From assembly GCA_044225365.1 (NCBI GenBank), contig JBGAIQ010000009.1, positions 32,001-96,000 of the forward strand: 64,000 nt of DNA, written 5' to 3'. This document shows positions 26,831-45,440 of this stretch, piece by piece; position 1 is the first letter of the stretch, and each line of letters begins with the position of its first letter. This DNA is from Planctomycetota bacterium. GTDB taxonomy: Bacteria > Planctomycetota > B15-G4 > JADJEK01. The notes beneath the pieces were generated by a model. It was not told where the DNA came from and made no database searches. It was given only the letters and a program-made list of their open reading frames with translations. Made by a program: the position numbers and the translations under genes.

Positions 26831-26884
26831 CTCCTTCGGCATCCGTTCTCGGCCGAGTTCTTCCACGGGCTGTTCGCCGCCTGT

Positions 26885-27154
26885 CTACCCATCCAGCCAT
26901 GGTCCCTTCTCCCACTTGGGCCCTTCCGCCGACACTTCGAGAATGCGAGTGCGAGAGAGTTGGCGCCAGGGTGTCTGACTCGCGTCGTACTCGACGATTT
27001 CATACTTTCGGCCGCAGGTCTTCCACGTCGTGCACGGTGCGGCGTTCGGGGGCTGGTCCCACGGCATCTCGGCGCGCCGGCGAACTTCGGCAAGAGCGTC
27101 GTCGAAGGTGCCGAACTCACCGATCTGTTCAGCGTGAGATTCGTCTTCGATCAC
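26885..27154 (-). CDS. Small hypothetical protein
   Basis: VIEDESHAE..PWDQPPNAAPCTTWKTCGRKYEIVEY; start uncertain. Confidence 0.6.
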   Translation of the reverse strand: MIEDESHAEQIGEFGTFDDALAEVRRRAEMPWDQPPNAAPCTTWKTCGRKYEIVEYDASQTPWRQLSRTRILEVSAEGPKWEKGPWLDG

Positions 27155-27283
27155 GAAAATCGGGACACCTCGCGGGTGCGGCGGGCAACGCGTTGAAAGT
27201 ACCGGCACTCCCCAGTGCGCGCGACTCGGAAAACGCGGTGGACCGCGCTCCGCGCCCATCCGTCCGGTATCCTGCCCGCCATC

Positions 27284-27751
27284 TCAGCCCTGCTCCTCAT
27301 GGATGAGTCTGAACTTCCGATTCAGGTCCACTGTCTTGAACGAGAAATAGAATCCGGAGTATTCCGGGTCGGCGCGATCCGACGCAGGCACGATCCTCTC
27401 CTCCACGGCATCATAATCCACTGCGGAGGCGTAGGTGCCGATGGCTCGCGCTTCTACTGGCTCGGTGTCCACCACGACTCGGTCGCCCTTCCTGAGCCTG
27501 GCCTGCCCACCCCCCGTGAACGGCGCTCCCCACGACGTCATGTAGTGAACGTCCACGTCGTCCAGCGCCTCGTAGATGTCTCCTTTGCGGGGAAAACGCA
27601 TGTCCGCCGGAATAAGGCTGCGCTCGTAATCCCGGGCCCATACCCATTCGGAATGTCCGATCGAGGTCCGCTCGCCGCGCTCCATTTCTGCGCATAGGTC
27701 GTCGATCGTCTTGTTCCAACCGGACGGGGTTGGCGGCACGGAGTTGCTCAT
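27284..27751 (-). CDS. Hypothetical cassette protein
   Basis: RFPRKGDIYEALDD..WGAPFTGGG; follows an eroded attC. Confidence 0.7.
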   Translation of the reverse strand: MSNSVPPTPSGWNKTIDDLCAEMERGERTSIGHSEWVWARDYERSLIPADMRFPRKGDIYEALDDVDVHYMTSWGAPFTGGGQARLRKGDRVVVDTEPVEARAIGTYASAVDYDAVEERIVPASDRADPEYSGFYFSFKTVDLNRKFRLIHEEQG

Positions 27752-27772
27752 CGAAGCCTTCGCCTCCACGTT

Positions 27773-27950
27773 GGTCCGCAAGCTCTGAATCGAGAGACAC
27801 CACGCGAAATGGGCCGTCGCTCCCCACATCGAAAGCGCCACGCCCTCGACTCCCTGATGTCGCGTACCGCCGAGCGGTGTGTCGCGTCCGAGAGCATCGG
27901 GTCTCGGGTTGCCTGGATCGCGGCGTGTCCGCTCCTTTGGCGAGTTGGCG
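27773..27950 (-). other. Eroded attC site
   Basis: R''-like CGCCAAC on the minus strand (27944-27950) just after the stop at 27958; distal arm degenerate. Confidence 0.4.
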
Positions 27951-27957
27951 GGCCACT

Positions 27958-28278
27958 TTACCAACCCATCACGGCGGGAAGTCGCCGGCCCGCCGCATCG
28001 ATCAGAGTCCAGAGGTCGATGAGAAAGCACAGGGCGAGCATGATTCGGCCGACCGTTGGAACGCGACGCCAGATCACGACAGAAAGCACCGAGGCCAAAG
28101 CCGCGATGCCGATGACCTGCATCACGATCGAACGATAGTCATTGTTTGCGAATGTGATCATGTTGATCGCGAACGCGTACAACGTCATGAGCAAGACGAG
28201 GGTGTAGCCCAGCGCAACCAACGGAAATGTCCTCCTTACCGGCCGGTTCGAAGATGCCGCCCCGAGGAATCCGTTCAA
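27958..28278 (-). CDS. Small membrane protein (about 3 TM segments)
   Basis: Three hydrophobic segments; stop followed by an attC-like sequence. Confidence 0.65.
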   Translation of the reverse strand: MNGFLGAASSNRPVRRTFPLVALGYTLVLLMTLYAFAINMITFANNDYRSIVMQVIGIAALASVLSVVIWRRVPTVGRIMLALCFLIDLWTLIDAAGRRLPAVMGW

Positions 28279-28333
28279 TGCACACGCGGGCCCCCGAAGG
28301 AGCGCGCCGCATCGGGTTCGCTCGAGCGAGAGG

Positions 28334-28804
28334 TCATGCGTCCATCCTCAGTAGGTGTGAAAGGATGCGGTTGAGAGTTTCGCGAAGTTCCATCCGCTCC
28401 TCGTCATCGAACGTCGGCACGAGGTTCGACATCCCGCACGAAAGGTACTCGAGAACGACCGCTCGCTCGTTGGCGGGCCAATGGCGAAATTCGAGGCGAA
28501 GCAATGTCTCCGACAGATGAAGGGGGTACAACGGCGGCTCGTGCCAAGGAGGGCCGAGGATTCGAAGGATACGCGGGAGATAGCGCCGGTAGGCACTGGC
28601 ATTTTCGCAATGGTCGAACGACTCCCACAACAACTTGCGACTGAGATCGTGGTCGAGCGCCTCGAGCGGTATGGAGGCGAGTCGATCGATGTCGTCCTCG
28701 GAGTAACAGTAATTGCAGAATTCCGCACGGATCCGCTGGTAGGCAGCGAACGTCTTGTAGAGCGCACTCGTGTCCGGCGATGGCACTATGAACGGTTCTC
28801 GCAT
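28334..28804 (-). CDS. Hypothetical protein
   Basis: FCNYCY..YRRYLPRIL..WPANERAVVLEYL. Confidence 0.65.
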   Translation of the reverse strand: MREPFIVPSPDTSALYKTFAAYQRIRAEFCNYCYSEDDIDRLASIPLEALDHDLSRKLLWESFDHCENASAYRRYLPRILRILGPPWHEPPLYPLHLSETLLRLEFRHWPANERAVVLEYLSCGMSNLVPTFDDEERMELRETLNRILSHLLRMDA

Positions 28805-29122
28805 GAGGCACATCGCAGCCGAGGAAATTGGACCTCTTCGACCTCGAACTGGCGCCTGAGGCAGCAGTCTATCGTCCACAGGTCGTCCTGTCGCCGTCAT
28901 CGGACCACGATCGTGTGTCGTTCACGTGGCCCGTCTCTTGAGGTCACATCCTCCCGAGCCGTGTCGATCCAGATCTCGCAACCTTGTCGGGCGAGGCCGG
29001 CTCGTGGTCGATGAGGCGCAGACCCCTGTCGGAACGCACGCAGTCGCGAAGGGTCAGGCAGCCGCAAACAGCGCGTCGGCCAAGGCCCGCGAGGAGGCGT
29101 CCAGGCCGTCATAGGCGCCCAT

Positions 29123-29662
29123 TCACGTTTCGTCGCGCTCGATCCTTCCACCGGACACGACCAAATGCGGCGCGTCTGCTTCGGGGCGAAAGAGCCGCCA
29201 ATCCTCATCGATCGATCCAGACGGGAACACTGCAAGTCTATACCCGCCGTTGAAGGCGATCGTGAATGAGCCGTGCGATTGAATCGCGACCGACTCGACG
29301 AGCAAACCAGTATCGTTCGACATGACTCGCTCCATCCGCAGATCTTGCACGTTACCGTCACGGTCGTAATCCCGGTCGTCGTCCGAGAATCCCTCGGGTT
29401 CATGGAGCGGCCGCAGTAGATCGGCCCGACCCGTGACGATTTCCTTGTCCGTCTCGATTCGCCACGGACACTGAATATGGAGGGCAAAGTCGCACACTGT
29501 TCCGCGCGGCTCGCCCTTTCGAAAGGGAAGTACCGATTCCGCCGCGCGACGGATGGTGCCGAAGTGAAGTACGCGCATGTCGCAAGCCCGTCTTGCGATG
29601 GACAGCTTCAGGCCAACCAACTGCTTCAGCGCTTCGAGGATCTCAGTATCATCCCGATCCAA
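29123..29662 (-). CDS. Hypothetical cassette protein
   Basis: LHFG..ALHIQCPWRI..EDWRLFRP..HLVVSG. Confidence 0.7.
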   Translation of the reverse strand: MDRDDTEILEALKQLVGLKLSIARRACDMRVLHFGTIRRAAESVLPFRKGEPRGTVCDFALHIQCPWRIETDKEIVTGRADLLRPLHEPEGFSDDDRDYDRDGNVQDLRMERVMSNDTGLLVESVAIQSHGSFTIAFNGGYRLAVFPSGSIDEDWRLFRPEADAPHLVVSGGRIERDET

Positions 29663-29677
29663 TCATATGTCCTTTGG

Positions 29678-29847
29678 AGAAGAGCGGCTGAGCTGAGCGG
29701 TGCGCGCGCTTGCATCGGAGATCGTCCTTTCTCTTCCGACGCGTCTCACCGCGCGAGGTGGTAGGCCGCGAGCCGCACCCCGCGATTCAGCGTTGGGCAA
29801 GTCGAGTGTAGCTGTATGAGATCATTCGTTGCAACGGCACGTTATCG
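29678..29847 (-). other. Partly eroded attC site
   Basis: Minus strand CGATAAC-gtgcc-GTTGCAAC contains the upstream gene's TAA; the distal arm CCGCTCAGCTCAGCCGC lacks a clean GTT. Confidence 0.55.
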
Positions 29848-30696
29848 GGCACGCCACCATCCGTCCGCCTCGAAAAGCATCGCGGCAGCCTCCTGCGCGA
29901 CGATCGCGGGCGGCGTGCCGTTGTCGTAGCGCAACCACTTGCCATCTTCGCCCATCGTCGGAGCTCCGAGGCGATGAGACAGATTGGGATGAAGATCGTG
30001 AGTGGTCACCTTGTTGGGCGGAACCGCCTTACCCCAGCCCAATATCACGCCGGTCGGTCCGCATCGACCGATCTCGATCACGAATCCCCCGCCCCACCTA
30101 TCGAATTGTATGGTCAAAAGATCGATGCCGGTCGAAGCGGCACGCCGAAAGTGCGGCAACGATCCTTTGAACCCGCGTGCGCGCAACTGCGGCACGAAGT
30201 GTTCTCGCAAGGCGTCTTTCATCGCGTCATTGCTCATGTCATGTTCTCTCCATCCTCGAGCGGCGAGTTCGCAAGCAAAATCTGCCGGGATACACGAATA
30301 ATGGGGAGCGCGCTGCTCGTCATCCGTCGGCGAAGGCGTAAAGCGCACGAACTCGGCTTTCTCCCGGCGGCGATCCATCCAACGCCAGATTCGGTAGTTC
30401 ACCTGTCCCTTGACGGGCGGCTGCTGAAGTAACTCCGGCCCGGCGAGGTGCGAGAAGTCGTTGTCGCGACGGACTCGAAGGATCCGGTCTTCGCGTTTCG
30501 GGATGATGAAATCCACCGCCGCGTTGAAGCCCTCTCCGATCGCTCGCTCGGCAACAACGGGCGGTGACGACCGCGGACCGTGAAAGACGAATACCCAATG
30601 GCCCCCGAACAAGATCTGCTTGGTCATTACAGCGATCAAGAAGTAGACGCCGTCTTTTCGGACTGCGACAAGGTCACCCGAGCGGATCTGAATCAC
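29842..30696 (-). CDS. Two-part ORF: unknown N-terminal domain fused in frame to a DUF4304-like domain (internal ATG 30237)
   Basis: C-terminal half MSNDAMKDALREHFVPQLRARGFKGSLPHFRR..LLTIQFDRWGGGFVIE resembles DUF4304. Confidence 0.65.
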   Translation of the reverse strand: MIQIRSGDLVAVRKDGVYFLIAVMTKQILFGGHWVFVFHGPRSSPPVVAERAIGEGFNAAVDFIIPKREDRILRVRRDNDFSHLAGPELLQQPPVKGQVNYRIWRWMDRRREKAEFVRFTPSPTDDEQRAPHYSCIPADFACELAARGWREHDMSNDAMKDALREHFVPQLRARGFKGSLPHFRRAASTGIDLLTIQFDRWGGGFVIEIGRCGPTGVILGWGKAVPPNKVTTHDLHPNLSHRLGAPTMGEDGKWLRYDNGTPPAIVAQEAAAMLFEADGWWRAR

Positions 30697-30726
30697 GGAA
30701 GCACCTGAGTTGCAGTCGACCGGTCT

Positions 30727-30839
30727 TCACAACGGTTGAGCTCGTTCGGGAACGCGGGCTCGCGCCTTCCGGGAAACGTCATTTCAGTCCGAACACGGCT
30801 GTTCATCCATCGCCTGTTCGTTCGAGCGAAGTGTTCGAC
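30727..30839 (-). other. attC site (degenerate)
   Basis: Plus strand TCACAAC-ggttgagctc ... ttcgagcgaagt-GTTCGAC; nested CGAACAC/GTGTTCG stem. Confidence 0.55.
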
Positions 30840-31210
30840 CGAAACTCACCCGATCGCCACGGACGGCGAACCGATCTGTCGCACTTTCGGATGCAGCGAA
30901 ACATTCGGTCTCGCTTTCACGGCTACCAGTACGCTTCGAGGCCATGGCCGCGCGAGGACCAATACTCGCACCACCGTGCCGCGGTGAACAGAATATGAGC
31001 TCTTGATTCTTCACTGCCTTCCTCGAACTCTGGGCGTGCCACGCGCTCCACGTGAGCAACTCCCGCCTTTGCGGAGAACGACGTTGCCCTTGCACGTAGT
31101 TCATGACCCAGTGCCTCTAGGCCTGGTGCGAGACAACTCTCGTAGCATTTCTCCAGGGTTGCCATTCCGATGATGTCCTCGCAGTCATGCAGAAACTGCG
31201 CGCGAAAACT

Positions 31211-32750
31211 GGGTCTTCCGGGAATCGTGTGGGTTTGAGGCTCAAAATCGCTTGGTTCGGCTGACAGCGTGACGTGAACCCGTTCCACGCTCACTCAACC
31301 TCAGACTCCGAAGCTGAGAGGGTGCACCGCCCTCTGGCCCCACCTCCGTCGTCGTCGGTCCTTCGCTCGCGTTCGCTCGCTCGGTCCGCGACCGACGCCG
31401 ACGGCGATGGGGCTGCGAGGGCTCGGGTGGCGTACTGGGCCGCAGTTCCCGAGCCTGTCCAGATCGCGTCGAGTCGCTACCGTTCGGGGGATGAACGACA
31501 ATGAACTCTATGCGCGGATCCTGGGACTTGAGACTCCGTGGCGAGTGACCAAGGTGGACCTCGCCTTGAAGAAGGGCGAAGTGTTGGTGGTCGTCGAGAT
31601 GGATCCGTCGGGGGCGCGATTGTGCGCCGAGTGCGGAGCCGCAAGCCCTGGCTACGACACGTTGGTTCGGCGCTGGCGTCACCTCGACACCTGCCAGTAC
31701 CGGACGATCCTTGAGGCGCAGGTGCCGCGCACGAATTGCGCGACGCACGGCGTGAAACAGGTCCGCACTCCGTGGGCGGAAGCGGGCTCGCGATTCACGG
31801 CGCTGTTCGAAGCGATGGTGATCGCGTGGCTGAAGCAGGCGAGTGCTGCGGGCGTCGCGAAGGAGATGCACCTGAGTTGGGACGAGGTCGACGGGATACA
31901 AGGACGCGCGGTGAAGCGAGGGCTTGAGCGGCGTCACGTGAGGTATCCCAAGCGCCTCGGCGTCGACGAAACGTCGTTTCAGAAGCGGCACGAGTATGTG
32001 ACGGTGATCTCCGATCAAAAGCGCAGCGAAGTGCTCGACGTACAGGATGACCGCAAGACCGAGAGTCTCGATCGCTTCTTCGGAACGCTCACGAACGCGC
32101 AGCGCAAACGAATCGAGCTCGTTGCGATGGACATGTGGCCGCCGTTCATGAACTCCGTCGCGAAGAATCTCGAGGACGGTGCGAGCAAGATCGCGTTCGA
32201 CAAGTTCCACGTCGCCAAGATGCTGGGAGACGCGGTGGACAAGACGCGGCGTGAAGAGAATCGAGAGCTTCTCGCCGAAGGCGACCGCTCGTTAGTCGGA
32301 AAAAAGTATCTCTTTCTCAGTCGCACAGAGCCGATCGATCCGGACCAGGATCCGTTCGAGTTTCGACAGTTCACGGCGGGCATGCTGCGGACCGCGAGAG
32401 CCTGGGCGATCAAGGAGACCGCGATGCACTTGTGGTCTTTCGATACGGTCCGCGCGGCGAAAGCCGCTTGGAATCGGTGGCTTGCTTGGGCGTCGCGGTC
32501 GCGCCTCCCGAGCATGGTGCGCGTGGCTCGAACGGTCAGAAAGCACCTCCAGGGGATCCTCGTCGCGGTCATCCACAAGATCACGAACGCAGACGGCGAG
32601 TCGATCAATGCGAAGATCCAACGGCTGAAGCAGCGAGCCTGCGGTTATAGAAACCGGCAACGCTTCCGAAATGCCATCCTCTTCCACTTCGGCGGACTGG
32701 ATCTCATGCCCCGGACGCTCGCATCAACCCACACGAAAGTCTGAAGCGCC
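31211..32750 (+). mobile_element. ISL3-family insertion sequence, 1540 bp
   Basis: Imperfect terminal IRs GGGTCTTCCGGGAATCGTGTGGGTT / GGCGCTTCAGACTTTCGTGTGGGTT; 8-bp TSD CGAAAACT at 31203-31210 and 32751-32758. Confidence 0.93.
31491..32744 (+). CDS. ISL3 family transposase
   Basis: CAECG zinc finger, RRWRHLD, LGVDETSF, VAMDMW, FDKFHV, TNADGESINAKIQ..ACGYRN. Confidence 0.95.
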   Translation: MNDNELYARILGLETPWRVTKVDLALKKGEVLVVVEMDPSGARLCAECGAASPGYDTLVRRWRHLDTCQYRTILEAQVPRTNCATHGVKQVRTPWAEAGSRFTALFEAMVIAWLKQASAAGVAKEMHLSWDEVDGIQGRAVKRGLERRHVRYPKRLGVDETSFQKRHEYVTVISDQKRSEVLDVQDDRKTESLDRFFGTLTNAQRKRIELVAMDMWPPFMNSVAKNLEDGASKIAFDKFHVAKMLGDAVDKTRREENRELLAEGDRSLVGKKYLFLSRTEPIDPDQDPFEFRQFTAGMLRTARAWAIKETAMHLWSFDTVRAAKAAWNRWLAWASRSRLPSMVRVARTVRKHLQGILVAVIHKITNADGESINAKIQRLKQRACGYRNRQRFRNAILFHFGGLDLMPRTLASTHTKV

Positions 32751-33180
32751 CGAAAACTAAACAACTCAACGTATCCCAACGGGCCATGTGTGTACATCGG
32801 TAAGCCATCACACGGAGGCGCAAGCTGAAGCACATAGTAACCTTTCATCTCGCGGATGAACTCCGCCTCGGACTGCCGAGGGGCCTTTGATTCACGATAC
32901 CGATCTCGCGCCCAGGCGTCCGCTCTTGGGTCGGTGCCGACACGCGGAGCTCGAAGTGTCTCGTACGGCGTGATCTGAATCTCGCGCCATCGTCGATCAA
33001 TGGCATCGCGATCGATGCCTCTCCACCGACGCCGCACCTTCTCGAACCAGCCAACGTTGACCGGCAAGTCCATCAGTCGCTGGAAGAGCCGAGCGAACTC
33101 TTCTTCGTGCCCGGCCTTCGGCTTGCCGATAGGATTCCAGTCGAGGCCCATGCTCTGAGAGACCTAGCTTGCACTTGACA

Positions 33181-33546
33181 GGTCTGGATAACTCATGTCC
33201 TGGACCTCACAGTCCATCCAGCATCGCGCTGGAATGTACCTCTTTCACCGAATCGTTGCTCCTGCGAATCGTTGGCGTGATCGTCTCGAACCGAGCGCGA
33301 TCACCGGACCGGATGGCGGCCGAGCGGTGAGCCAGAGTCGGCGTCTTGCTTCGGCTGACGGCGATCGGCTTGGTAGTGAGGCCGATGAACGTCGGTGGCC
33401 TGAGCCTGCTCTCGGCCAGCCCCTCGCGAAGAACGAGGGACTCGACGTGCGGGTCCATTGCGTTCATCTCCGAGGTTCCGTGGTCGGCGCGAGTGGATCC
33501 ATGATGGGCGACCGTCGAGATCAACCGTTGCAACGGCTGGTTCCGC
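33181..33546 (-). other. Composite attC remnants (GTTATCC-type R' half at 33185-33191; canonical R''/L'' half at ~33525-33546)
   Basis: GGTCTGGATAACTCA identical to 38766-38780; minus strand GCGGAAC-cagcc-GTTGCAAC after the CbrC stop. Confidence 0.5.
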
Positions 33547-33552
33547 AGCAAC

Positions 33553-34113
33553 TCATATGAAGTCGCTGTACCCGGCAACCCTTCCGCAGCGATCACACCT
33601 GAAGAGATACGCCGTGGGCGAGCCGATCCGCGAGAGTGCTTTCAGGTACTCCTGCCACGGATTCCCCTCCTCCCATCCGAGCTCTGTCCTGATGGCTTCA
33701 ATGACTTCAAGGGCCCCTGGACCGAGCTTCATAAGGTCCGAAAAGCCTGCCGGACCAAGGAAGGTCGCCGCATCTTCGCAGCAGGTCATCCATCGCTCTT
33801 GCTGCCATCCGGAAAAGCCGGGGGTTCGAAAAGCCACCTCTTCAGCGATCACACGGTCGACCTCCTCCCATGAACCGAAGCCACCGACACCAGCGAGTTC
33901 AGTGAACTCTGCACCGTACTTCTCATGCGCGCTACCGTCGACGATGCACCACGGACAGATGTCGTCCCGATGCTCCGCCTCAGAGTAGACCGGACCCGTG
34001 TAGATGTAGCCCCGAGCGCGATGACAGCATACGCAAGTCACCGGCGAACTCTGGACGCTTCCCGTGGCGACCGGATCCGGGTGATAGCGAAAACGTGGCA
34101 GAGGCTCGCTCAT
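33553..34113 (-). CDS. CbrC/UPF0167 family protein
   Basis: LPRFRYHPDPVATGS, CVCC..RGYIY.GPVY, CPWCIVDGSAH, RTPGFSGWQQERW, AYLFRC..C. Confidence 0.9.
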   Translation of the reverse strand: MSEPLPRFRYHPDPVATGSVQSSPVTCVCCHRARGYIYTGPVYSEAEHRDDICPWCIVDGSAHEKYGAEFTELAGVGGFGSWEEVDRVIAEEVAFRTPGFSGWQQERWMTCCEDAATFLGPAGFSDLMKLGPGALEVIEAIRTELGWEEGNPWQEYLKALSRIGSPTAYLFRCDRCGRVAGYSDFI

Positions 34114-34140
34114 ATATCTCGGCTTCGTCCGCCCCGCGAG

Positions 34141-34194
34141 ATGCCGCTCGGCCGCGCGAGCGAATCGAGCGCCTGCGGAGGCGGCATGTTAGGC
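34141..34194 (-). other. Eroded attC (R'' half and hairpin)
   Basis: Minus strand GCCTAAC includes the upstream TAA; ATGCCGC...GCGGCAT stem; R' lost. Confidence 0.5.
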
Positions 34195-34656
34195 AGACAA
34201 GTCCAACAGCAAAGACGCACGCGCTCGGCAGGCCGGAAGCATGCCGGGGAGGTCCTCCCGAACTTGGGCTACGGCCCAGTCCAATCGCCCACAGTCATCG
34301 ATCAAGTGATCGAGGTAGTAACCGAAACGGACGACAGGATTTTCGAGATCCTCACCGAGGCAGTTTCCGGCCGCCCACCGAGCGAATGCGGACACGGCGT
34401 CATCGCTCGCGAGATCGAGTTCAACGGCATGCAAGCTGAACTGAGATGGGAAGTCGAGCTTGGGTGGCCGCCCGAAGCCCTCCAACTCAAAACAAGGTCC
34501 CGGGCCATGCTCCACCAGCTCGAGTAGCCACGTCGGAATCTGCGCCGGATCAGCGTGCGACATCAATACCCGCTCGGCCCAACCGGAAACCTGCTCATCG
34601 CTGAGAAAGCCTGCCGCCCAGACGGAGAGCACGCGGTTCCTCTCATCAAGAAGCAT
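34189..34656 (-). CDS. Hypothetical cassette protein
   Basis: Starts just after an attC R' (GTTGAGC, 34666-34672); stop lies within GCCTAAC. Confidence 0.7.
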   Translation of the reverse strand: MLLDERNRVLSVWAAGFLSDEQVSGWAERVLMSHADPAQIPTWLLELVEHGPGPCFELEGFGRPPKLDFPSQFSLHAVELDLASDDAVSAFARWAAGNCLGEDLENPVVRFGYYLDHLIDDCGRLDWAVAQVREDLPGMLPACRARASLLLDLSA

Positions 34657-34665
34657 AGTCGTCCT

Positions 34666-34690
34666 GCTCAACGATGCCGGTCAGCGGATA
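34666..34690 (-). other. attC half site (L'-R')
   Basis: Minus strand CCGCTGACCGGCATC-GTTGAGC; the R'' arm was not found. Confidence 0.5.
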
Positions 34691-34885
34691 GTGGCGGTCC
34701 AGATTCTACCGCGCCGACGAGCTCCACATCGCTCGCCGGCAGCTTCGGCGCGTGAGGTGAGTCTGCGGTCGGGCACGCGACGTCCGGGCGACGGCTCGTC
34801 GCCGAACGTCTCCGAGAGCGGGATGACCTCGCGATCGTGTTTCGCAATCGTGTTGACTGCGTACGGCCGGGGTTCCCGGCGTCCT

Positions 34886-35122
34886 TCATGGAGATGTCCG
34901 ATTCGTGCCCGTACAGAACCGCCAACTCCGGTCCTCGGGGAAGCCGGGCGCCTCGCGGTACATGACGTCGAGCCGAGCGCCATCGACGAAAAACCGAACG
35001 GCGGCGAAGCAAGGCTCGGGGCCGCAGGGTTGAACCACGACGTCGGCCGACTGGGTTGACCAAGTGATCGAGGCGCTGACCAGCGTCGCATCGTGCAGGT
35101 CGAGATCAACAAGCGAGGTCAT
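34886..35122 (-). CDS. Short or truncated cassette ORF
   Basis: MTSLVDLDLHDATLVSASITW starts 6 bp after an attC R'; the C-terminus looks scrambled. Confidence 0.45.
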   Translation of the reverse strand: MTSLVDLDLHDATLVSASITWSTQSADVVVQPCGPEPCFAAVRFFVDGARLDVMYREAPGFPEDRSWRFCTGTNRTSP

Positions 35123-35128
35123 AGATCT

Positions 35129-35221
35129 GGCCAACGACACAAGCTCAGCGACGGCGGCCACGAGACGCGCCAATTGCAACCGCGACGGCCCGCCGCCGTT
35201 CGCTGCAGCGCATGGTTAGAC
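35129..35221 (-). other. attC site
   Basis: Minus strand GTCTAAC-catgc-GCTGCAGCGAACGGCGG ... CCGCCGTCGCTGAGC-ttgtgtc-GTTGGCC. Confidence 0.9.
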
Positions 35222-35641
35222 GGCGTGGTCATCTGGCGCATCACCCTCGCCAAGAAAGTATAGATCGAAATCGATGTCGAGACCGAGTGCGGCGACTCTG
35301 GCAAGAAGCTGCCGCGGAAGGTGAATGCCCGGTGTAAGCGTGCGGAAATAAACGGCGCAACCAATCTCAGCGGGAAAACGCGACAGGACTGCGCGAATGC
35401 CGGTGGCGTGTGCCTCCAAGGCTGTAAGCAAAGCATCAAGGTGCTCCTCGACTGGCGCGGTGAGTGGCAGCGGACTCTTGAAAGTCCAGCGGCTGTGTCG
35501 GCGCGTAACGTCCGGGCGCGTGCGCATCGGCTGACCAACAACCCACGCTTCGGTCGGCTCGAAGCCAGCCAACTGCGTGACAACGCTGGCGTCCTGACCA
35601 AACTCGAACACTGCGAAGAAAACGTGAGCGTCATGTTCCAT
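35216..35641 (-). CDS. DUF4279-like cassette protein
   Basis: VTQLAGFEPTEAW..G..W...S...EEHLDALL..LGLDIDFDLY; stop lies in the attC R''. Confidence 0.75.
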   Translation of the reverse strand: MEHDAHVFFAVFEFGQDASVVTQLAGFEPTEAWVVGQPMRTRPDVTRRHSRWTFKSPLPLTAPVEEHLDALLTALEAHATGIRAVLSRFPAEIGCAVYFRTLTPGIHLPRQLLARVAALGLDIDFDLYFLGEGDAPDDHAV

Positions 35642-35655
35642 GTCGTGCGAACGCC

Positions 35656-35763
35656 TTCTAACGCGTGCAATTCTGCGGCGGCGCGAACACACCCGCGGCC
35701 GCCAAGTGTGGCAAGAGCGGCCGCGTTCCGCAACGCGCCGTCAGCAGAAATTGCTCGTTGGAC
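35656..35763 (-). other. attC site
   Basis: Minus strand GTCCAAC-gagcaatttctgctgacggcgcg ... cgcgccgccgcagaattgcacgc-GTTAGAA. Confidence 0.88.
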
Positions 35764-35980
35764 AGCGAGCTGAGGCCTCACATGCAAGACGTCCTGTGCC
35801 ACCGAGGCGGACGTCTAGTTCACGAAGAAACGCGCCCAGCAGCTCCGAATTGCGCCGATCAAGAGTCGGCATGGGCTCACCTGCCGCTTGATGTTCGCCT
35901 TGTGCGACGAGGCAATCTCGCAGGAGCCGGGCCGTTTCAACGTCGATTCGAAATTCAATCAGCGCGGTGTCGTCCGCCAT
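35741..35980 (-). CDS. Small hypothetical cassette protein
   Basis: 79-aa ORF filling the space between two attC sites. Confidence 0.55.
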   Translation of the reverse strand: MADDTALIEFRIDVETARLLRDCLVAQGEHQAAGEPMPTLDRRNSELLGAFLRELDVRLGGTGRLACEASARCPTSNFC

Positions 35981-35992
35981 TGGTTTCTTGGC

Positions 35993-36119
35993 TCTCTAAG
36001 CTCGCTGTTCAGCGGGGGCGCGCTGACATGGAAAGCGCGGCGCACGCGCATAATGAAATGACGCGTGTGCGCCGCGCCGCCATACCTTTGGCACCGACCG
36101 CTGCAACTGCCTGTTAAGC
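35993..36119 (-). other. attC site (R' has CTT instead of GTT)
   Basis: Minus strand GCTTAAC-aggca-GTTGCAGCGG ... CCGCTGAAC-agcgag-CTTAGAG; internal GCGGCGCACACGCG/CGCGTGCGCCGC stem. Confidence 0.82.
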
Positions 36120-36132
36120 GGCTGACGCACTG

Positions 36133-36573
36133 CTATGGATTCTGCCGACGCCCAATGCGTACGCATTCGCGCACATCGGACCATAATGCCGTGCCCCGCG
36201 CACGCGCCGCAGCAACGAACTCAGGAAGGCGGCGCGCAAGCTCCTGGATGTGCGTATCGAGTTCCGAACTGCTGCCGTAGCGCGGCGACCTCCACGGAGG
36301 CAACGTTAGCGCCTGCGCCGGCCAGCCGAGCCCCACCTCATCGTTCGAATTCCAACCACGGTTGGCATTGGACTCCGGAGCTACTGTGACGGTCATGTTT
36401 ACTCCGTGGCCCGCAGCACAATAGACGAGGAGATCGAATGGAGTACCGCGGAAGATCGCCAACATCTCCTCACGATGGCGCGGTATCCAAAGTGGACCCA
36501 CGAAGCCAATTTCGCGTGCGCCTGCGACGAGAAAAGTATCGAGGCTCGTGACGAAGTCCCTGGGCTCACTCAT
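36133..36573 (-). CDS. Hypothetical cassette protein
   Basis: 146-aa ORF bounded by two attC sites. Confidence 0.65.
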   Translation of the reverse strand: MSEPRDFVTSLDTFLVAGAREIGFVGPLWIPRHREEMLAIFRGTPFDLLVYCAAGHGVNMTVTVAPESNANRGWNSNDEVGLGWPAQALTLPPWRSPRYGSSSELDTHIQELARRLPEFVAAARARGTALWSDVRECVRIGRRQNP

Positions 36574-36609
36574 CGCGAACTCGCACCTTGAAATGCGCTT
36601 GCAGAAGCC

Positions 36610-36673
36610 GCCTAACGTTCTGGTTCAGCGGCGAGCCGCGCAGCGGCCCGTCCGCTGCAACCGATTGTTCGGC
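36610..36673 (-). other. attC site (canonical, 64 bp)
   Basis: Minus strand GCCGAAC-aatc-GGTTGCAGCGG-acgggccgctgcgcggctcg-CCGCTGAACC-agaac-GTTAGGC; extra base in L''; 6 bp after the SLATT stop. Confidence 0.95.
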
Positions 36674-36679
36674 GGTTGC

Positions 36680-37591
36680 TCATTTTGTTTCCCTTCGAGC
36701 AACCCACATAGCGTGCTCACGGGAAATAGCTGTCTCGGCGTCATTAACAAACCGCGCAAGCTCAATTTCCGTCCTGACGTGCGGGGCGCGTGCAGCAATC
36801 AACGAGAGTTCTTGCGCCGCTAATCCGTATGCCTGTGCGAGCTCTTGATATCGCTTCATCGCACCCCAAGCGACAGTCGCCGATGCGAGAGTGCTGAACA
36901 CCGTTGCCGCCTTCCAAGGGAACGCAGGATATATTGCGAGCAGGACGGCTGCGCCTCCGGCCGCCGTTTGGAATACAACGAGCAGGACGAACCAGACATT
37001 ACGTTTGTTCCGATTGTCAGCCGACTTCTGCGAGTACCATGTCTGCTGTTCAACGACTCGCTGAGACAAGTAAGCATCGCGTTTTACACCGATCGCCGCA
37101 TTGCGGAGACCTTCCATGTACGACGTGACCTGCTGCCCCGTGGCATCCAGGCCAGCTAGCAGCGGAGCCAGCTGCTTGTTCTCGTTCAGCAACTCCCTTA
37201 GCGAATTCGTAAAGAGTTCAAGCGCATCCTGATACGACATCGACGACGGAAACGGATCGGCCGCACAGACAAATTTCCACGTCAGTGATTTCGCCGATTC
37301 GGCGACGGCGCGACCGGCATACCAGATTCTTTCCCATCGACGCGTTGCTAAGAGAATCGTGACCCCAACAGCCCCGAAGAAGATGATTGCTGCGATGGTG
37401 TTAACGACCCGCTTGCTCTCCACGTCAGTGAGACCAATCGATCCCACCATTGCTCCACTGAGTAGCAGCGACAGGTTGATGGTCACCCAGCGGGTATACC
37501 ACTTCTGACCAGACGAGGACGCATCATCCGCACACCGATACAGGGCGGGGAAAGATATTCGGTCAAAAGGCTTTGCCTCGAACTTTGCCAT
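36680..37591 (-). CDS. SLATT/DUF4231 membrane protein (two 2-TM modules)
   Basis: FPALYRCADDASSSGQKWY, WERIWYAGRAVAESAKSLTW, YLSQRVVEQQTWY..K, RYQELAQAY, FVNDAETAISREHAMW. Confidence 0.88.
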   Translation of the reverse strand: MAKFEAKPFDRISFPALYRCADDASSSGQKWYTRWVTINLSLLLSGAMVGSIGLTDVESKRVVNTIAAIIFFGAVGVTILLATRRWERIWYAGRAVAESAKSLTWKFVCAADPFPSSMSYQDALELFTNSLRELLNENKQLAPLLAGLDATGQQVTSYMEGLRNAAIGVKRDAYLSQRVVEQQTWYSQKSADNRNKRNVWFVLLVVFQTAAGGAAVLLAIYPAFPWKAATVFSTLASATVAWGAMKRYQELAQAYGLAAQELSLIAARAPHVRTEIELARFVNDAETAISREHAMWVARRETK

Positions 37592-37625
37592 GGGGGATAT
37601 CTCTGTGAAATCTCGATTATGACCG

Positions 37626-38021
37626 TCACGGGACAAGACGCCGCATGGTGCGGACGATCTCGTCAATGTCCCAGCCGACTCGCGGATGAGCTGCGAGCGG
37701 TGAGGGATAGTATTTGATGCGCCCATCGCTGTAGAGCCGAACCCCCATGATTGGCTTGCCGAGTTCGAGTGCCTTGTTCAGTTCCCAATCAACCCAGCTG
37801 CTCGTGTATGTGGTTGGCCCGTAGAGACACATGTTGAGGCTCGATCCACTGATCTTCGGAGCAATCTGCTGTTTGATGTAGTGCGCGTTGCTACTGTTGT
37901 ACGGTTCTCGAACCGAGTAGTCGGCGAATTCCAGGTCTCCGTTCTTGTTCTTCGCCTGTCCGCGAAATAGGTTGACCAATGCCAAATCTTCTTCGACAAA
38001 GCTGAGGAATGTCCGGATCAT
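37626..38021 (-). CDS. TIR-like protein (ThsB/DUF1863-like)
   Basis: RTFLSF, FADYSVREPY, YIKQQI, SSWVDWEL (catalytic Glu position), GKPIMGV; GGAGG RBS. Confidence 0.85.
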   Translation of the reverse strand: MIRTFLSFVEEDLALVNLFRGQAKNKNGDLEFADYSVREPYNSSNAHYIKQQIAPKISGSSLNMCLYGPTTYTSSWVDWELNKALELGKPIMGVRLYSDGRIKYYPSPLAAHPRVGWDIDEIVRTMRRLVP

Positions 38022-38032
38022 GGAACCTCCAG

Positions 38033-38578
38033 TTAGTAGCCGCGCAACCACTTGCTCAGTAGATCAGCAGTATTGGTGTGGTGGTCGTACACCATCCATA
38101 CATTCTTCTCGTGTCCCTCTAGCGACCCCCAGACGATGCGTCGATAGAGACCGAGGTATTCCTGTTCAGCCCATTTTGTCTCGGTGACCCTTTGTACAAC
38201 CGGAAACAGTGCAACGGCGGCGGTCGACTTTTGCCCGTCTGCCAACCCGAGTTCCCACGGAATCCAGATGCTTCCCTTGCTGTTCGGTGAAACCAAGAGA
38301 ACAAGTCGTCGCATTTCACGAATGGTGTCCCTCAGAACTTGAGCGGTCTCAACCGAGGGGGGCTCGGGAAGGCGATCGTCGCCAAGATCAACGTAGATTT
38401 GTCCGCCGTGATTTTGAAGCACAAGCACTACACCGGGAACGAGATCGTTATCCTTCGATGAGTGGGAAAGGAATATGTTCTTCTCAGACTTCGACGCGGC
38501 GGCTTTCGTGAGAGTCTGCCGCTCTTGAAGCGTCCCGACAAATCCCTTTACCTCGTCAATGGTGGTGTATTGCGGCAT
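38033..38578 (-). CDS. TIR domain protein
   Basis: IFLSHSSKD, IYVD, SPNSKGSIWIPWELGLADG (catalytic Glu position), EYLGLY. Confidence 0.9.
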   Translation of the reverse strand: MPQYTTIDEVKGFVGTLQERQTLTKAAASKSEKNIFLSHSSKDNDLVPGVVLVLQNHGGQIYVDLGDDRLPEPPSVETAQVLRDTIREMRRLVLLVSPNSKGSIWIPWELGLADGQKSTAAVALFPVVQRVTETKWAEQEYLGLYRRIVWGSLEGHEKNVWMVYDHHTNTADLLSKWLRGY

Positions 38579-38768
38579 TTCTTCAACCTCAGTCGTGAGT
38601 CAGGAACAGCGCGACATCGGTCACACTGGCTGCGTCGTCGCCGTCCTCGTCTTAGACATGGTCGAGGATAACGACCTGTGCCCTCAGCTTGGTCCGATGT
38701 CCGTTGCCCGTATCGTATTCTGGGAATAGCCTGCCCTGCCTCCGTCGCCGAACTTGCATTCGACCGGT

Positions 38769-38898
38769 CTGGATAACTCACCGCCGCTGGACCACACGGT
38801 CCAATCAACGTCCGGCTGCGCTCGGTCTCATTTACCATATCCTGTCCGTTCCGCATCATTTGCGCGATCGAGTCCATGGAAGCTCGCTTGTTATCCAG
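38769..38898 (-). other. Atypical attC-like site with GGATAAC/GTTATCC cores
   Basis: CTGGATAAC (38769-38777) ... GTTATCCAG (38890-38898) terminal inverted repeat with inner TGGAC/GTCCA pairing. Confidence 0.6.
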
Positions 38899-38912
38899 GT
38901 CTGGATAACAAG
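38887..38912. other. Perfect 12-bp palindrome; candidate attI / first-cassette junction
   Basis: CTTGTTATCCAG-GT-CTGGATAACAAG, about 40 bp beyond the intI stop. Confidence 0.55.
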
Positions 38913-38953
38913 GCACGGAGTTCTCGTGGCAGTCCGATCCATGAACGCTCCAT

Positions 38954-39460
38954 TCATGGCTCGAGCAACCGATCCGCGGGACTCTTCACGCCGGCCGGCC
39001 CGCGATTGAGGACGTGCGTGTAGATCATGGTGGTGGCGACGTCCTTGTGCCCGAGCAGTTCTTGTACCGTGCGGATGTCGGAGCCATCCTCCAGCAGATG
39101 CGTTGCGAAGGAGTGGCGAAACGTGTGACAGCTCGCGCGCTTTGAGATTCCAGCGGCGAGGACCGCGCGGCGCACCGCCTCTTGGACGACGGATTCATGG
39201 AGATGGTGACGGCGGCGCTGTCCAGTCGCGGGATGCACGTGGAGTCGCGTCGCGGGAAACACCCACTGCCAGGGCCACTCGCGGCCGGCGTTCGAGTACT
39301 TGCGCGAAAGAGCGTGCGGTAGTTCGACCCAGCCCGCACCCGCTTCGAGATCTCCGCGATGCTGCGCACCACTCGCCGCGATTTTCGCGGCGAGCGCCGG
39401 CTTGGTCGCGATCGGCAGCATCGTGACGTGATCCTTGTCACCCTTGCCACTGACGAATGC
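38954..39460 (-). pseudogene. intI: Integron integrase, 5'-truncated (C-terminal half only)
   Basis: GKGDKD.VTMLP; IntI-specific [37 protein letters not shown]; [12 protein letters not shown]; [16 protein letters not shown]. The N-terminal domain and box I Arg are absent. Confidence 0.88.
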
Positions 39461-39701
39461 AGGACGGGACGCGTGACCCCCGTCGACGAGCGACTCGCTC
39501 GCGACGAAACGCGGGTACGACAACCTTGCGAAGGTCATGAATCCCATCCTCGATCTCATTCCCGCGCCCGAGCGACTCCGTCGCGCGGCGTGAAGATTCG
39601 GACGCTACGCCGAATCGCGGAGAGCGTCAAGCGGATCGCGACGGCGAAGCGCAGGACCAGGCGCGTTGGCGGCCGTCTTCGGGGAAACTCCGGAACTCCT
39701 C

Positions 39702-39752: not shown

Positions 39753-40066
39753 GGTGATGCCGTGAATGCCTTCCATTCCCTCCATGTGCCCCTCCTCCCT
39801 TCCTTGGACCCATCGCCGGCAAAGCCGGCGAGCGCGGTCGAAGCTGCGGGAAGGTGTCACGCGAACGATCCGATCCATTTCGTCGCGACGGCGCGCGGCC
39901 TCACGAAGGGTCTCGGCGAACCGAGCCATCGCCATCCGTGCTCGCCCATCGATTCCACCGCCAACCGCCAATCCACCCGCGGAGTCGACACCGACGCGCT
40001 TCCCAAAGCCCGCGTCGTCGCGACGTTTTTTGCCGACCGCCAACCGCCCCTCGCCCATCGCCACCC

Positions 40067-40735
40067 ATGACCGCCGCGAAACGCCTTGCCCCATCGCTCT
40101 CGTCGCCGCTCTGGTCGCCGGCCGTGTTCGCCGGGCGATTCGTCGAGCTCACGGGGCGCGCGCGGCTGACGATGGCGTTCAGTCTGATCCTGATGGCGCA
40201 GCAGAGGCGCGAGCCCGTCGCGTGGATCGCGAGTCGCGGAGATCGGGAGAGCCTGTTCTTCCCGCCGGATGCGGCGGAGTGCGGAATCGATCTCGAGGCG
40301 CTGCCCTGCGCGCGGGTCGTCGATGCGGCCGCGGCGGCGCGGGCGGCCGATCTCTTGTTGCGCTCGGGTGCGTTCGGGCTGGTAGTGCTCGATCTCGGAA
40401 ATGCGAACGAGTTGCCGATGCCGCTGCAATCGCGGCTCGCCGCGCTCGCGCAGAAACATGAAGCCGCCGTGGTCTGTGTGACGGAGAAGAGCGAGCAGAC
40501 GGCCTCGCTCAGTTCCCTCGTATCCCTGCGCGCCGAGGCCTGGCGGGACAAAGCGCGCAAGGAGGTCCGCAAGGACCGGAGCGAGGGTTTGGATTTCGAG
40601 GACGACGACTCCGCGGTCACGACCGCGAGCGCGAGCGATCGGCTCGTCTGCGGAGTCCGGATCCTCAAGGACAAACAGCGCGGACCGGGGTGGGGCCACG
40701 CGGAGTCACTCCGTGGACCGCCTGGTTTGTGTTGA
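40067..40735 (+). CDS. imuA: ImuA-like (RecA-fold) mutagenesis protein
   Basis: GRFVELTG, FFPPDAAECGIDLEAL, ARAADLLLRSGAFGLVVLDL, SLSSLVSLR; first gene before imuB-dnaE2. Confidence 0.8.
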   Translation: MTAAKRLAPSLSSPLWSPAVFAGRFVELTGRARLTMAFSLILMAQQRREPVAWIASRGDRESLFFPPDAAECGIDLEALPCARVVDAAAAARAADLLLRSGAFGLVVLDLGNANELPMPLQSRLAALAQKHEAAVVCVTEKSEQTASLSSLVSLRAEAWRDKARKEVRKDRSEGLDFEDDDSAVTTASASDRLVCGVRILKDKQRGPGWGHAESLRGPPGLC

Positions 40736-42239
40736 CGTCGTTCAACTCCCCCTCCAAGTCTTGCTGCGCTCGCGACCGGATTGGGTGAAGCACCCTTCCG
40801 CCGTCGTCGCCGAGGACAAGCCGCAGGGACGGCTCTTGTTCGCGAACGAAGCGGCGCGACAGCAGGGCGTGCTGCCGGGGCAGCGCTACGCCGCCGCGCT
40901 TTCGCTCTGCGCGGGGCTGCGGGCCGCGGTCGTCGGCGACGCGGAGATCGCGACGGCGCTCACCGAGATCGCGCGGCAGCTCGCGGAATTCACTCCGGGC
41001 GTGGAGACGTCGAAGGAGCGACCCGGCGTGTTCTGGCTCGATGCGAAGGGCCTCACCTTGCTCGAGCCCTCGTTGCCGGACTGGGCGCGACGGATCGACC
41101 AGGCGCTGCGGGCGATCGGTTTCGTGGCGCATCTCGCGCTCGGATTCCGACGCTTCGCGACGCTCGCGGCCGCGGAGACGCGACGCGGACTCGTGGTGTT
41201 CGACGACGCGAAGTCCGAGCAGGAATACTTGTTCGGGATCCTGCTCGCTCGCATCGACATCGAGCCGAAGTTGCGCGACGAGCTCGGCAAGCTCGGCATC
41301 CACACGGTCGGGGAATTCGCTCGCCTGCCGCAGGAGGGCGTGCGCTCGCGCTTCGGTGAGGACGCGGAGCGCCTGCATCGGCTCGCGAACGACCGCGTCG
41401 CGGACCCGTTCTCGCCGGCCCCCATCCATGCGCCGCTCGAGCGAAGGATCGCGTTCGAGGAGGCGTTGACCGACTCGACGTCGCTCTTGTTCTTCATCAA
41501 GCCCTTGCTGCACGAACTGCTGGACGAGCTGGCGCAACGCGGGCTCGCGCTCGAGGAATTCACCCTCCGTTTGAAGCTGGAGAACGGCGCGCCGCACGCA
41601 GCGACGCTGCGACCCGCCGCGCCCACGCTGCAGATCGGGATGCTGATGCAGCTCGCGACGCTGCATTTCGAACAGGGTTTCGCCGCGACGAAGGACGCCG
41701 GCGCGCGCCGCCCGTCGCGCAATTCGAATTCGATCGAGGAATTGTTCGTCGGCGCCCAAGGCGTCCCCGCGCGTCCCGAGCAGCTCTCGCTGTTCCGCGA
41801 GAATCCCCGGCGCGATCTCCACGCGGGAGAGCGCGCGCTCGCGCTGGTGAGGAGCCGCTTCGGCGAGACGTCGATCGGCCGCATCGTCCTCCAGGAGGCG
41901 CATCTCCCCGAGGCGCGCTTCCGCTTCGAGCCGATCACGAAGCTCGAATATCCGCAGCCCTCCCCCGCGCTCGAACGCGTCGCGATCCGCCGCATCTTCT
42001 CCCAGCCCATTCCGGTCTCGCCGCCGCGCCGCCATCCGCACGACGACGGCTGGATCCTCCACGACTTGAAGCAGGGAACGGTGACGAAGACCGACGGCCC
42101 TTATGTCGTCTCCGGCGGCTGGTGGGCGCGCGAGGTGCATCGCGAATATCGCTTCGTGCACACGCTCTCGGGGGACGTGATGTGGGTCTTCTACGACAAG
42201 AAGCGCCGCCGATGGTTCTTGCAGGGAGATCTGGAATGA
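40713..42239 (+). CDS. imuB: ImuB, inactive Y-family polymerase
   Basis: ANEAARQQGVLPG, FTPGVE, LGKLGIHTVGEF..RFG, QLSLF clamp motif, C-terminal GPYVVSGGWW..REY..WFLQG. Confidence 0.88.
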   Translation: MDRLVCVDVVQLPLQVLLRSRPDWVKHPSAVVAEDKPQGRLLFANEAARQQGVLPGQRYAAALSLCAGLRAAVVGDAEIATALTEIARQLAEFTPGVETSKERPGVFWLDAKGLTLLEPSLPDWARRIDQALRAIGFVAHLALGFRRFATLAAAETRRGLVVFDDAKSEQEYLFGILLARIDIEPKLRDELGKLGIHTVGEFARLPQEGVRSRFGEDAERLHRLANDRVADPFSPAPIHAPLERRIAFEEALTDSTSLLFFIKPLLHELLDELAQRGLALEEFTLRLKLENGAPHAATLRPAAPTLQIGMLMQLATLHFEQGFAATKDAGARRPSRNSNSIEELFVGAQGVPARPEQLSLFRENPRRDLHAGERALALVRSRFGETSIGRIVLQEAHLPEARFRFEPITKLEYPQPSPALERVAIRRIFSQPIPVSPPRRHPHDDGWILHDLKQGTVTKTDGPYVVSGGWWAREVHREYRFVHTLSGDVMWVFYDKKRRRWFLQGDLE

Positions 42240-42281
42240 AGCGACTCGCGGCTTGCCGCATCGCCCTTCCCCACTCTTCCC

Positions 42282-45440
<3,159 letters not shown>

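Follow-up and report, generated by a model that had tools for sequence, protein, structure and literature searches.

A 64,000-nucleotide stretch from a Planctomycetota bacterium (GenBank assembly GCA_044225365.1, contig JBGAIQ010000009.1, positions 32,001 to 96,000; hereafter the window) was analysed, and we focused on three minus-strand open reading frames (ORFs) that lie head to tail at 36680-38578 and encode two TIR proteins, TIR-A and TIR-B, and a SLATT protein. A preliminary description, made from the sequence alone, had presented them as a candidate Thoeris-like anti-phage system carried in an integron. The features of the locus are as follows (aa, amino acids; nt, nucleotides).

TIR-A, 38578..38033, minus strand: 181 aa
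TIR-B, 38021..37626 (longest ORF from 38051), minus strand: 131 aa, ThsB_TIR/DUF1863-type
SLATT protein, 37591..36680 (longest ORF from 37726), minus strand: 303 aa, SLATT_3 plus SLATT_1, DUF4231, ThsH-like
attC site closing the three-gene cassette, 36610-36673, minus strand: 64 nt, directly after the SLATT stop; R'' GCCGAAC, R' GTTAGGC

The intergenic gaps were 11 nt between TIR-A and TIR-B and 34 nt between TIR-B and SLATT, and both TIR genes lie directly upstream of the SLATT gene. TIR-B likely starts at the ATG at 38021, which has a GGAGG 5 nt before it and stands 11 nt past the TIR-A stop. The likely start of the SLATT protein is the ATG at 37591, since the resulting 303-aa form is covered over 100% of its length by homologues that are themselves 303 aa long. 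The three genes together had a guanine-plus-cytosine (GC) content of 54.7%, compared to 62.3% in the following cassettes, 64.7% in a remnant of an integron integrase gene (intI) and 66.8% in the imuA-imuB-dnaE2 set beyond it. These results agree with the earlier observation of three tightly spaced, co-oriented genes that are more AT-rich than their flanks.

TIR-A and TIR-B are ThsB-type proteins with the catalytic glutamate in place

The domains first assigned to the three proteins (TIR, ThsB/DUF1863-like TIR and SLATT/DUF4231) were recovered by searches against Pfam, NCBIfam and PADLOC. TIR-A matched Pfam TIR_2 (E 1.2e-9) and, over its full length, the ThsB model PDLC00436 of PADLOC-DB 2023 (3e-62). 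TIR-B matched Pfam ThsB_TIR (3.3e-18) and several PADLOC ThsB models, the best being PDLC00418 (7.8e-13), with ThsB2 reaching only 6.7e-4. The closest solved relative of TIR-B was 8fz9_A (BcTir; E 1.4e-11), and the ThsB structures 6lhy_A and 9b7d_A were also detectable as its relatives. Both TIRs are minimal single-domain proteins.

In ThsB, the aligned glutamate of the W-x-x-W/Y/H-E motif is the catalytic residue. Glu109 of TIR-A, in WIPWELG, aligned to WMPWELG of 8btn_B, and Glu80 of TIR-B (counted from the ATG at 38021), in WVDWE, aligned to WVPHE of 8fz9_A and WVRYE of 6lhy_A, confirming that the catalytic position is kept in both proteins. The nearest TIR-A homologue (locus L002, 62% identity) lies beside a SLATT gene, and W-x-P-W-E was kept in every TIR-A-type homologue.

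The third gene encodes a four-helix SLATT protein

The SLATT protein matched SLATT_3 (1.2e-37), SLATT_1 (1.1e-31) and DUF4231 (3e-12) in Pfam, and its SLATT_3 and SLATT_1 halves were matched by NCBIfam as well. The PADLOC run that had been proposed as a check recognised TIR-A and TIR-B by ThsB models, and PADLOC-DB 2023 gave no model for the SLATT protein. Four hydrophobic stretches (about 35-55, 59-86, 198-224 and 214-232) and an all-helical predicted structure with a predicted local distance difference test score (pLDDT) of 91 are consistent with the suggested four-transmembrane topology. Comparison of the sequence with solved structures returned nothing better than E 0.14, and comparison of the model with solved folds returned nothing at E <= 0.001 (best template modelling score 0.23). 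The invariant charged and aromatic residues of the family (W90, R94, E98, K101, W105, R163, R178, E286, R291, E292, H293 and W296) sit in the non-membrane helices.

TIR genes accompany SLATT genes in most homologous loci

We scanned one genome per species with a SLATT profile and confirmed 581 of 599 candidate stretches; the best 80 loci, spread over many phyla, were retained. Their top match was only 62% identical to the SLATT protein (best 80 of 581), which indicates that the window's own genome is not in the scanned collection. SLATT proteins of 80-93% identity (P0001-P0018) are encoded on metagenome contigs. Of the same-strand ORFs immediately upstream of SLATT, 50 of 74 had a TIR domain by Pfam; the same was true of 23 of 60 downstream ORFs and of 9 among the 43 second upstream ORFs submitted. 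When all ORFs on both strands within 3.5 kb of the SLATT homologue were counted with our own iterated TIR profile, at least one TIR ORF was present in 69/80 loci and two to four in 33/80 (one in 36 loci, two in 25, three in 4, four in 4 and none in 11). This neighbourhood bears out the TIR-to-SLATT logic that had been guessed from the sequence alone.

TIR-A-type genes, defined by a phmmer score > 50 bits, occurred in eight of the 80 loci (L002, L029, L077, L018, L072 and three near-identical Mesorhizobium loci), and a ThsB_TIR-type gene was also present in all eight. The TIR-TIR-DUF4231 arrangement, for which conserved synteny had been envisaged, recurs in these eight loci in its composition, but its order varies. 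With A, B and S standing for TIR-A-type, TIR-B-type and SLATT genes, the order is A-B-S in the window, S-A with B on the opposite strand in L002, S-A-B in L029, B'-S-A-B in L018, A-S-B in Mesorhizobium and B-A-S in L072, and in L077 the A-type gene stands 2.6 kb off on the opposite strand. The composition recurs in Acidobacteriota, Pseudomonadota and Bacteroidota.

The closest TIR-B relatives stand directly upstream of SLATT, in L010 as the sole TIR and in L042 with another TIR 1.8 kb off. In both loci, which belong to unrelated genomes, a QueC-family gene stands directly upstream of the TIR-B-type TIR and SLATT genes (L010, 4782-5375, a Dehalococcoidia metagenome-assembled genome (MAG); L042, 4828-5463, Sinorhizobium saheli), and it could be a further component of a TIR-B-type subtype.

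The three genes form one integron cassette

The L'' and L' arms of the attC at 36610-36673 pair with one extra G in L'', the 5' arm, and the site is thereby oriented like the genes. Folded as single-stranded DNA, the site had a z of -4.4, and none of 200 shuffles folded as well. We also built a covariance model solely from five attC sites of locus L049, a Vicinamibacterales MAG independent of the window. Over the whole 64-kb window this model produced two matches, both on the minus strand (35129-35221, E 7.8e-7; 36610-36673, E 4.5e-6), the second being the attC that had been picked out from the sequence. With the filters off, a third site appeared at 35665-35756 (E 0.42), and nothing was found at E <= 10 within 36680-38953, from the SLATT stop to the integrase, so that no attC splits the TIR-A, TIR-B and SLATT genes. 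On this sequence evidence the three genes are one cassette with no internal attC, as first described, and at least four further cassettes follow it. TIR-SLATT genes between attC sites were also found in L049 and L078. The following cassettes are listed below.

ORF146, 36573..36133, minus strand: attC 36119-35994
ORF79, 35980..35741, minus strand: attC 35763-35656
DUF4279 gene, 35641..35216, minus strand: attC 35221-35129
Imm33-like ORF, 35179..34886, minus strand: in the array of following cassettes, 34110..36609
ORF160, 34671..34189, minus strand: degenerate attC about 34192-34115

By eye, an R'' start of the form GCCGYCTAAC was seen right after the stops of ORF146, ORF79, the DUF4279 gene, ORF160 and the SLATT gene, and R' was damaged in two of these five sites. 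Reading by eye is also the source of the attC sites listed for ORF146 and ORF160. Matches to GCCGYCTAAC with 0-1 mismatch clustered in 35215-36676 only; with 2 mismatches there was no enrichment in the window (94 found vs 110 expected). Relaxed attC pattern scans of the window gave about 150 mostly intragenic matches each and were dropped as noise, and an inverted-repeat search of the window did not pick up the attC sites.

The integron is decayed and its integrase truncated

Upstream of TIR-A, the window holds the following two features.

Spacer, 38579..38953, minus strand: 375 nt between the intI remnant and TIR-A
intI remnant, 38954..39559, minus strand: 5'-truncated integron integrase gene, C-terminal half only, on the strand of the cassettes

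The remnant matched NCBIfam TIGR02249 (5.8e-67; 226 bits vs a cut-off of 265) only over model positions 154-315 of 315, and Pfam Phage_integrase at 9.5e-24. The N-terminal half was absent from every frame upstream of the remnant. Its 3' end faces the cassettes, and its cut 5' end abuts an imuA-like/imuB-like/dnaE2 set. The integron first described is therefore present in its attC sites and cassette array, and its integrase only as a C-terminal fragment on the same strand as the cassettes; a full-length divergent integrase and a recognisable attI, which a complete integron would have, were not seen. Because no canonical attI was recognisable between the intI remnant and TIR-A, the description of the cassette as attI-proximal and most recently acquired cannot be upheld, and we reduce it to the first recognisable cassette after the intI remnant.

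The spacer carries three direct GTTATCC repeats (38909-38903, 38777-38771 and 38672-38666) and may be an attI-like region. It also contains, at 38753-38747, the heptamer GTTCGGC, the exact complement of the unusual attC R'' GCCGAAC at 36673-36667; the chance of such a match on this strand in 375 nt is about 10%, and the heptamer has 27 matches on both strands of the 64 kb. We infer from this motif a candidate 5' crossover of the three-gene cassette, which would then likely span 38752..36616 (2137 bp). An element of about 55 nt with GAGTTATCCAGACC, around one of the GTTATCC repeats, occurs twice on the minus strand, at 38753-38800 between the intI remnant and TIR-A and at 33166-33215 just upstream of the ORF 33151..32645. 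Similarity between the copies stops at ..GCAAG|(T/C)T, the place expected for a cassette crossover. The element was absent from all 82 fetched loci, and it may be a duplicated attI-like site or a special recombination site.

Genes around the cassette

Beyond the cassettes, 20000-34100 is occupied by a long series of small genes on the minus strand, as is typical of cassette arrays. Its recognisable members include glyoxalase-like and 3-dmu-9_3-mt genes and the following.

UPF0167, 33553-34113, minus strand: small-gene run downstream
DUF4304, 29842-30696, minus strand: small-gene run downstream
Imm21, 23995-24792, minus strand: small-gene run downstream
Macro domain gene, 22488-22967, minus strand: 14 kb from the three-gene cassette, in another part of the array

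The covariance model found no attC of the same family in 20000-34100, where the sites may be of another type or eroded. An ISL3-family transposase gene (31407-32744, plus strand; DDE_Tnp_ISL3, 3.8e-63) is inserted among these small genes and probably interrupts the ORF 33151..32645, whose 3' end overlaps the transposase ORF.

On the other side, imuA-like, imuB-like (Y-family polymerase-like) and full-length dnaE2 (NF004225) genes occupy 39854-45440 on the plus strand and read away from intI; an SOS mutagenesis cassette beside an integron integrase remnant is a curious neighbourhood. Elsewhere in the window, the 1176-aa product of 11631-15161 (plus strand) weakly matches PDZ at its N terminus, contains many TPR repeats and has a CHAT protease domain (4.9e-68) at its C terminus, an architecture of the sort found in conflict systems.

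TIR-SLATT modules in other integrons and on plasmids

The covariance model identified at least 11 attC sites in 12.8 kb of L049, six of them outside the training set, and the sites at 5390-5466 and 6844-6917 exactly bracket a two-gene TIR-SLATT unit. In L078, from Neolewinella, two attC-like repeats of 134-136 nt (GCCCAAC...GTTGGGC, 79% alike) enclose an ORF, a TIR gene, a SLATT gene and a TIR-A-like stretch, and L002 has one attC-like site 0.6 kb beyond the module. A strict attC scan over the 80 loci gave 37 matches, compared to 19 in block-shuffled controls, and only the repeated, very stable sites of L049, L078 and L002 were used from it.

In an integrase search of the 80 loci, a 361-aa tyrosine recombinase upstream of TIR-SLATT was found only in L006, with a weak match in L053. 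The L006 gene (2142-3227, a Flavobacterium MAG) is co-directional with a series of small genes, the last of which are TIR-SLATT, and its product is 43% identical to the intI remnant of the window over 115 aa. L006 might be another case of an integrase on the same strand as its cassettes.

SLATT/DUF4231 homologues were also found in 81 plasmid records, many of which belong to Enterobacteriaceae of clinical or wastewater origin. The three records inspected (L081-L083, from Klebsiella and Vibrio vulnificus) each carry a DUF4231 gene with a convergent 134-aa TIR gene; the pair adjoins a resolvase gene with IS26 nearby in the two Klebsiella plasmids, and a site-specific integrase gene lies about 0.9 kb upstream in the V. 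vulnificus plasmid. These pairs are probably mobile copies of type VII Thoeris, the TIR + SLATT form introduced below, and no integron context was found in the three inspected of the 81 records.

Comparison with published defence systems

The combination of TIR and SLATT has been named type VII Thoeris, with ThsH as its effector, in a preprint of December 2025 (Yirmiya et al., bioRxiv 10.64898/2025.12.03.692087). According to the parts of that preprint available to us, a scan of defence islands found 84 TIR genes adjoining SLATT genes, and three TIR + SLATT operons, from Pseudohongiella nitratireducens SCS-111, an Alteromonadales scaffold and B. licheniformis SCCB 37, were validated in phage defence. 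The same parts report that the TIRs produce canonical cyclic ADP-ribose (cADPR) only upon infection and that cADPR added from outside halts the growth of, or is toxic to, cells with the system.

The three-gene cassette resembles this system in its small TIR genes in an operon with a SLATT membrane protein, in its lack of a SIR2-SLOG, Macro or caspase-like effector, in belonging to a kind that spans many phyla, and in the expected logic of a TIR-made cyclic ADP-ribose signal that would lead to SLATT toxicity. Its TIR genes are stand-alone genes in the operon of a membrane SLATT effector, TIR-SLATT adjacency is conserved, and the TIR glutamate is kept. Two differences were noted: the published form is drawn as two genes, whereas the window has two TIR genes of different subfamilies, and the window copy is an integron cassette. 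Among the best 80 of 581 loci, none came from the three sources of the validated operons, and a search from a Bacillota homologue returned no B. licheniformis protein among the best 120 of 882 matches.

The upstream TIRs of most SLATT loci were full-length matches to the PADLOC models PDLC00429 (ThsB1) and PDLC00440 (type II ThsB2), which fits a remark of Yirmiya et al. (bioRxiv 10.64898/2025.12.03.692087) that the TIRs linked to SLATT group with those of type II. They also note operons with both ThsH and a type VIII effector. In Flavobacteriia and cyanobacteria, TIR-SLATT has TPR-S genes beside it, either free-standing or joined to a TIR domain (as second upstream ORFs in L016, L023 and L033, and also in L008, L014, L041 and L051), and such TPR-S/TIR genes beside SLATT fit these mixed operons. 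The type VIII configuration is that of BcTir/BcTpr of Bacillus cereus, a TIR with a MilB-like glycosidase-TPR protein. The likeness lies in BcTir being the nearest solved relative of TIR-B and in the TPR-S/TIR genes beside SLATT in several loci; the difference is that the BcTir effector, which is described as binding cADPR in the source as far as available, is a soluble glycosidase-TPR protein and not SLATT, and no such gene is present in the window cassette.

Type I Thoeris, which pairs the SIR2-SLOG protein ThsA with ThsB, shares with the window ThsB-type TIRs that keep the glutamate, and PADLOC ThsB1 models match both TIR-A and TIR-B, but the window effector is a membrane protein. Loci of type I may carry multiple interchangeable ThsB genes. 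In line with the preliminary description, which saw no ThsA-type gene, no SIR2, SLOG, TM-Macro or caspase-like effector was found in the cassette or the scanned neighbouring ORFs. Type II Thoeris was rejected as there is no Macro effector in the cassette; the only Macro gene is the one at 22488-22967, 14 kb off. CBASS with SLATT effectors shares the effector superfamily and the idea of nucleotide-triggered membrane killing, as far as its available description goes, but the partner enzymes in the window are TIRs; no CD-NTase/SMODS cyclase occurred among the scanned ORFs around the cassette, and CBASS and Pycsar were rejected for want of a cyclase gene.

Phage defence in integron cassettes has also been published. 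The available part of Kieffer et al. (bioRxiv 10.1101/2024.07.02.601719), which cites a companion study on chromosomal integrons, describes mobile integron cassettes that encode phage defence ('BRiCs'), so that integrons serve as stores of defence genes. Among them is 'Tragantia', a phage-protective two-gene cassette that encodes a ThsB homologue together with a second protein, about 300 aa long and predicted to fold like a pore. Tragantia and the window share a ThsB-type gene and a putative membrane protein of about 300 aa in one integron cassette; BRiCs belong to mobile class 1-type integrons of enterobacteria, whereas the window has a three-gene cassette in a degenerate chromosomal integron. 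Our literature search, in which supplementary locus lists were not included, found no text on a two-ThsB SLATT form or on Thoeris VII in integrons. With both the TIR + SLATT system and integron defence cassettes in print, the locus can no longer be regarded as a candidate of a kind not yet described.

Proposed mechanism and alternative explanations

Taken together, the gene content, domains, aligned glutamates, conserved TIR-SLATT neighbourhood, attC and cassette array, all directly observed, lead us to favour, as probable, a Thoeris-type abortive-infection module of the TIR + SLATT kind (type VII) with two ThsB genes, carried on one 2.1-kb cassette in a decaying chromosomal integron. From this assignment we infer the identity of the signal and its binding, the killing of the cell through the membrane, protection against phages and the way in which the two TIRs share the work. 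Upon phage infection, one or both small TIRs would convert NAD+ to a cyclic ADP-ribose signal, most likely canonical cADPR by analogy with the validated systems. The signal would bind the cytoplasmic helices of the four-helix SLATT protein, which would assemble in the membrane and kill or arrest the cell before the phage cycle is complete. The two TIRs would most likely be parallel sensors that respond to different phage triggers and share one effector, with TIR-B as the basic partner and TIR-A as an add-on.

Several points limit this assignment or weigh against it. The promoter and terminator scan found no promoter-like site on the coding strand of the three-gene cassette, which, with the integrase reduced to a remnant, leaves expression in doubt. 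The placement in type VII is based on domain content, gene neighbourhood and the published description of the validated ThsH/ThsB pairs. Eleven of the 80 loci, some of them short contigs, have no TIR within 3.5 kb. The co-occurrence of TIR-A-type and ThsB_TIR-type genes in 8/8 loci is statistically weak: its chance is roughly 0.1, because most SLATT loci have a ThsB_TIR gene anyway, and three of the eight are the near-identical Mesorhizobium loci. Neither TIR-A nor TIR-B belongs to the commonest SLATT-linked subfamily (PDLC00429/00440), and the signal could therefore differ from cADPR.

The two TIRs could instead form an obligate pair, either in a mixed TIR-A/TIR-B assembly or acting in series, with one sensing or regulating and the other making the signal, so that the locus would be a distinct three-component subtype and not a two-gene system with an extra sensor. 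A TIR-A-type protein was never the sole TIR beside SLATT (0/8 loci), only 11 nt separate TIR-A from TIR-B in the window, three phyla share the A-type + B-type + SLATT composition despite its shuffled order, and the literature mentions a type III Thoeris with several TIR proteins. We nevertheless regard an obligate pair as unlikely: the variable order and strand, with the A-type gene of L077 2.6 kb away, are unlike tightly co-evolving subunits, the glutamate kept in both TIRs makes neither look like a pure regulator, the co-occurrence is what chance would give at about 0.1, and type I Thoeris offers loci with several interchangeable ThsB genes. A bolder form, which we also hold to be unlikely, would make the TIR-A-type protein the defining third component of a distinct TIR-A + TIR-B + SLATT subtype; this protein would assemble with the ThsB_TIR-type protein or make a second signal, and SLATT would integrate the two inputs. 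Such a three-part module would travel from one phylum to another distant one ready-made in an integron cassette, as the two-gene form would.

It is rather improbable that the cassette is decaying or silent cargo in a dying integron, no longer expressed or functional, or that it persists mainly through an addiction-like effect that keeps the array stable, the role which toxin-antitoxin cassettes have in large chromosomal integrons. The truncated intI, several degenerate downstream attC sites, the ISL3 transposase inserted at 31407-32744 and the lack of a coding-strand promoter-like site would suit such decay, but none of the three ORFs is broken or shortened relative to its homologues, the residues needed for catalysis and those invariant in the family are retained, and the cassette's own attC is the best preserved in the window. 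That the TIRs deplete NAD+ as effectors in their own right, with SLATT an independent or merely co-located membrane toxin, is very improbable, since single-domain TIRs with no sensor or partner to control a lethal NADase, the TIR-SLATT linkage in 69/80 loci and validated TIRs that, in the available text, make cADPR only on infection, with cADPR alone triggering toxicity via the system, outweigh the glutamate kept in both TIRs and the fact that many bacterial TIRs act so, cases which that text (Yirmiya et al., bioRxiv 10.64898/2025.12.03.692087) describes as filtered out.

Significance

The three-gene module, probably of type VII with two ThsB genes, is, in these results, real but largely already explained. 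The mechanistic guess of the preliminary description was mostly right, as it matches an experimentally validated system, and the locus adds little to existing knowledge. What is particular to it is the second, different TIR gene, the three-gene cassette form and the odd, decayed integron.

For the family, these results indicate that environmental, probably acidobacterial, genomes hold modules like type VII Thoeris in the form of integron cassettes with several genes, and that in such modules a single SLATT effector is often surrounded by two to four different TIR genes. TIR-A-type and ThsB_TIR-type proteins, which repeatedly occur together, offer a concrete pair for studying the use of one effector by several TIRs. 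Should the second TIR extend the spectrum of phages that are sensed, the cassette would be a compact means of moving a multi-sensor immune module between genomes.

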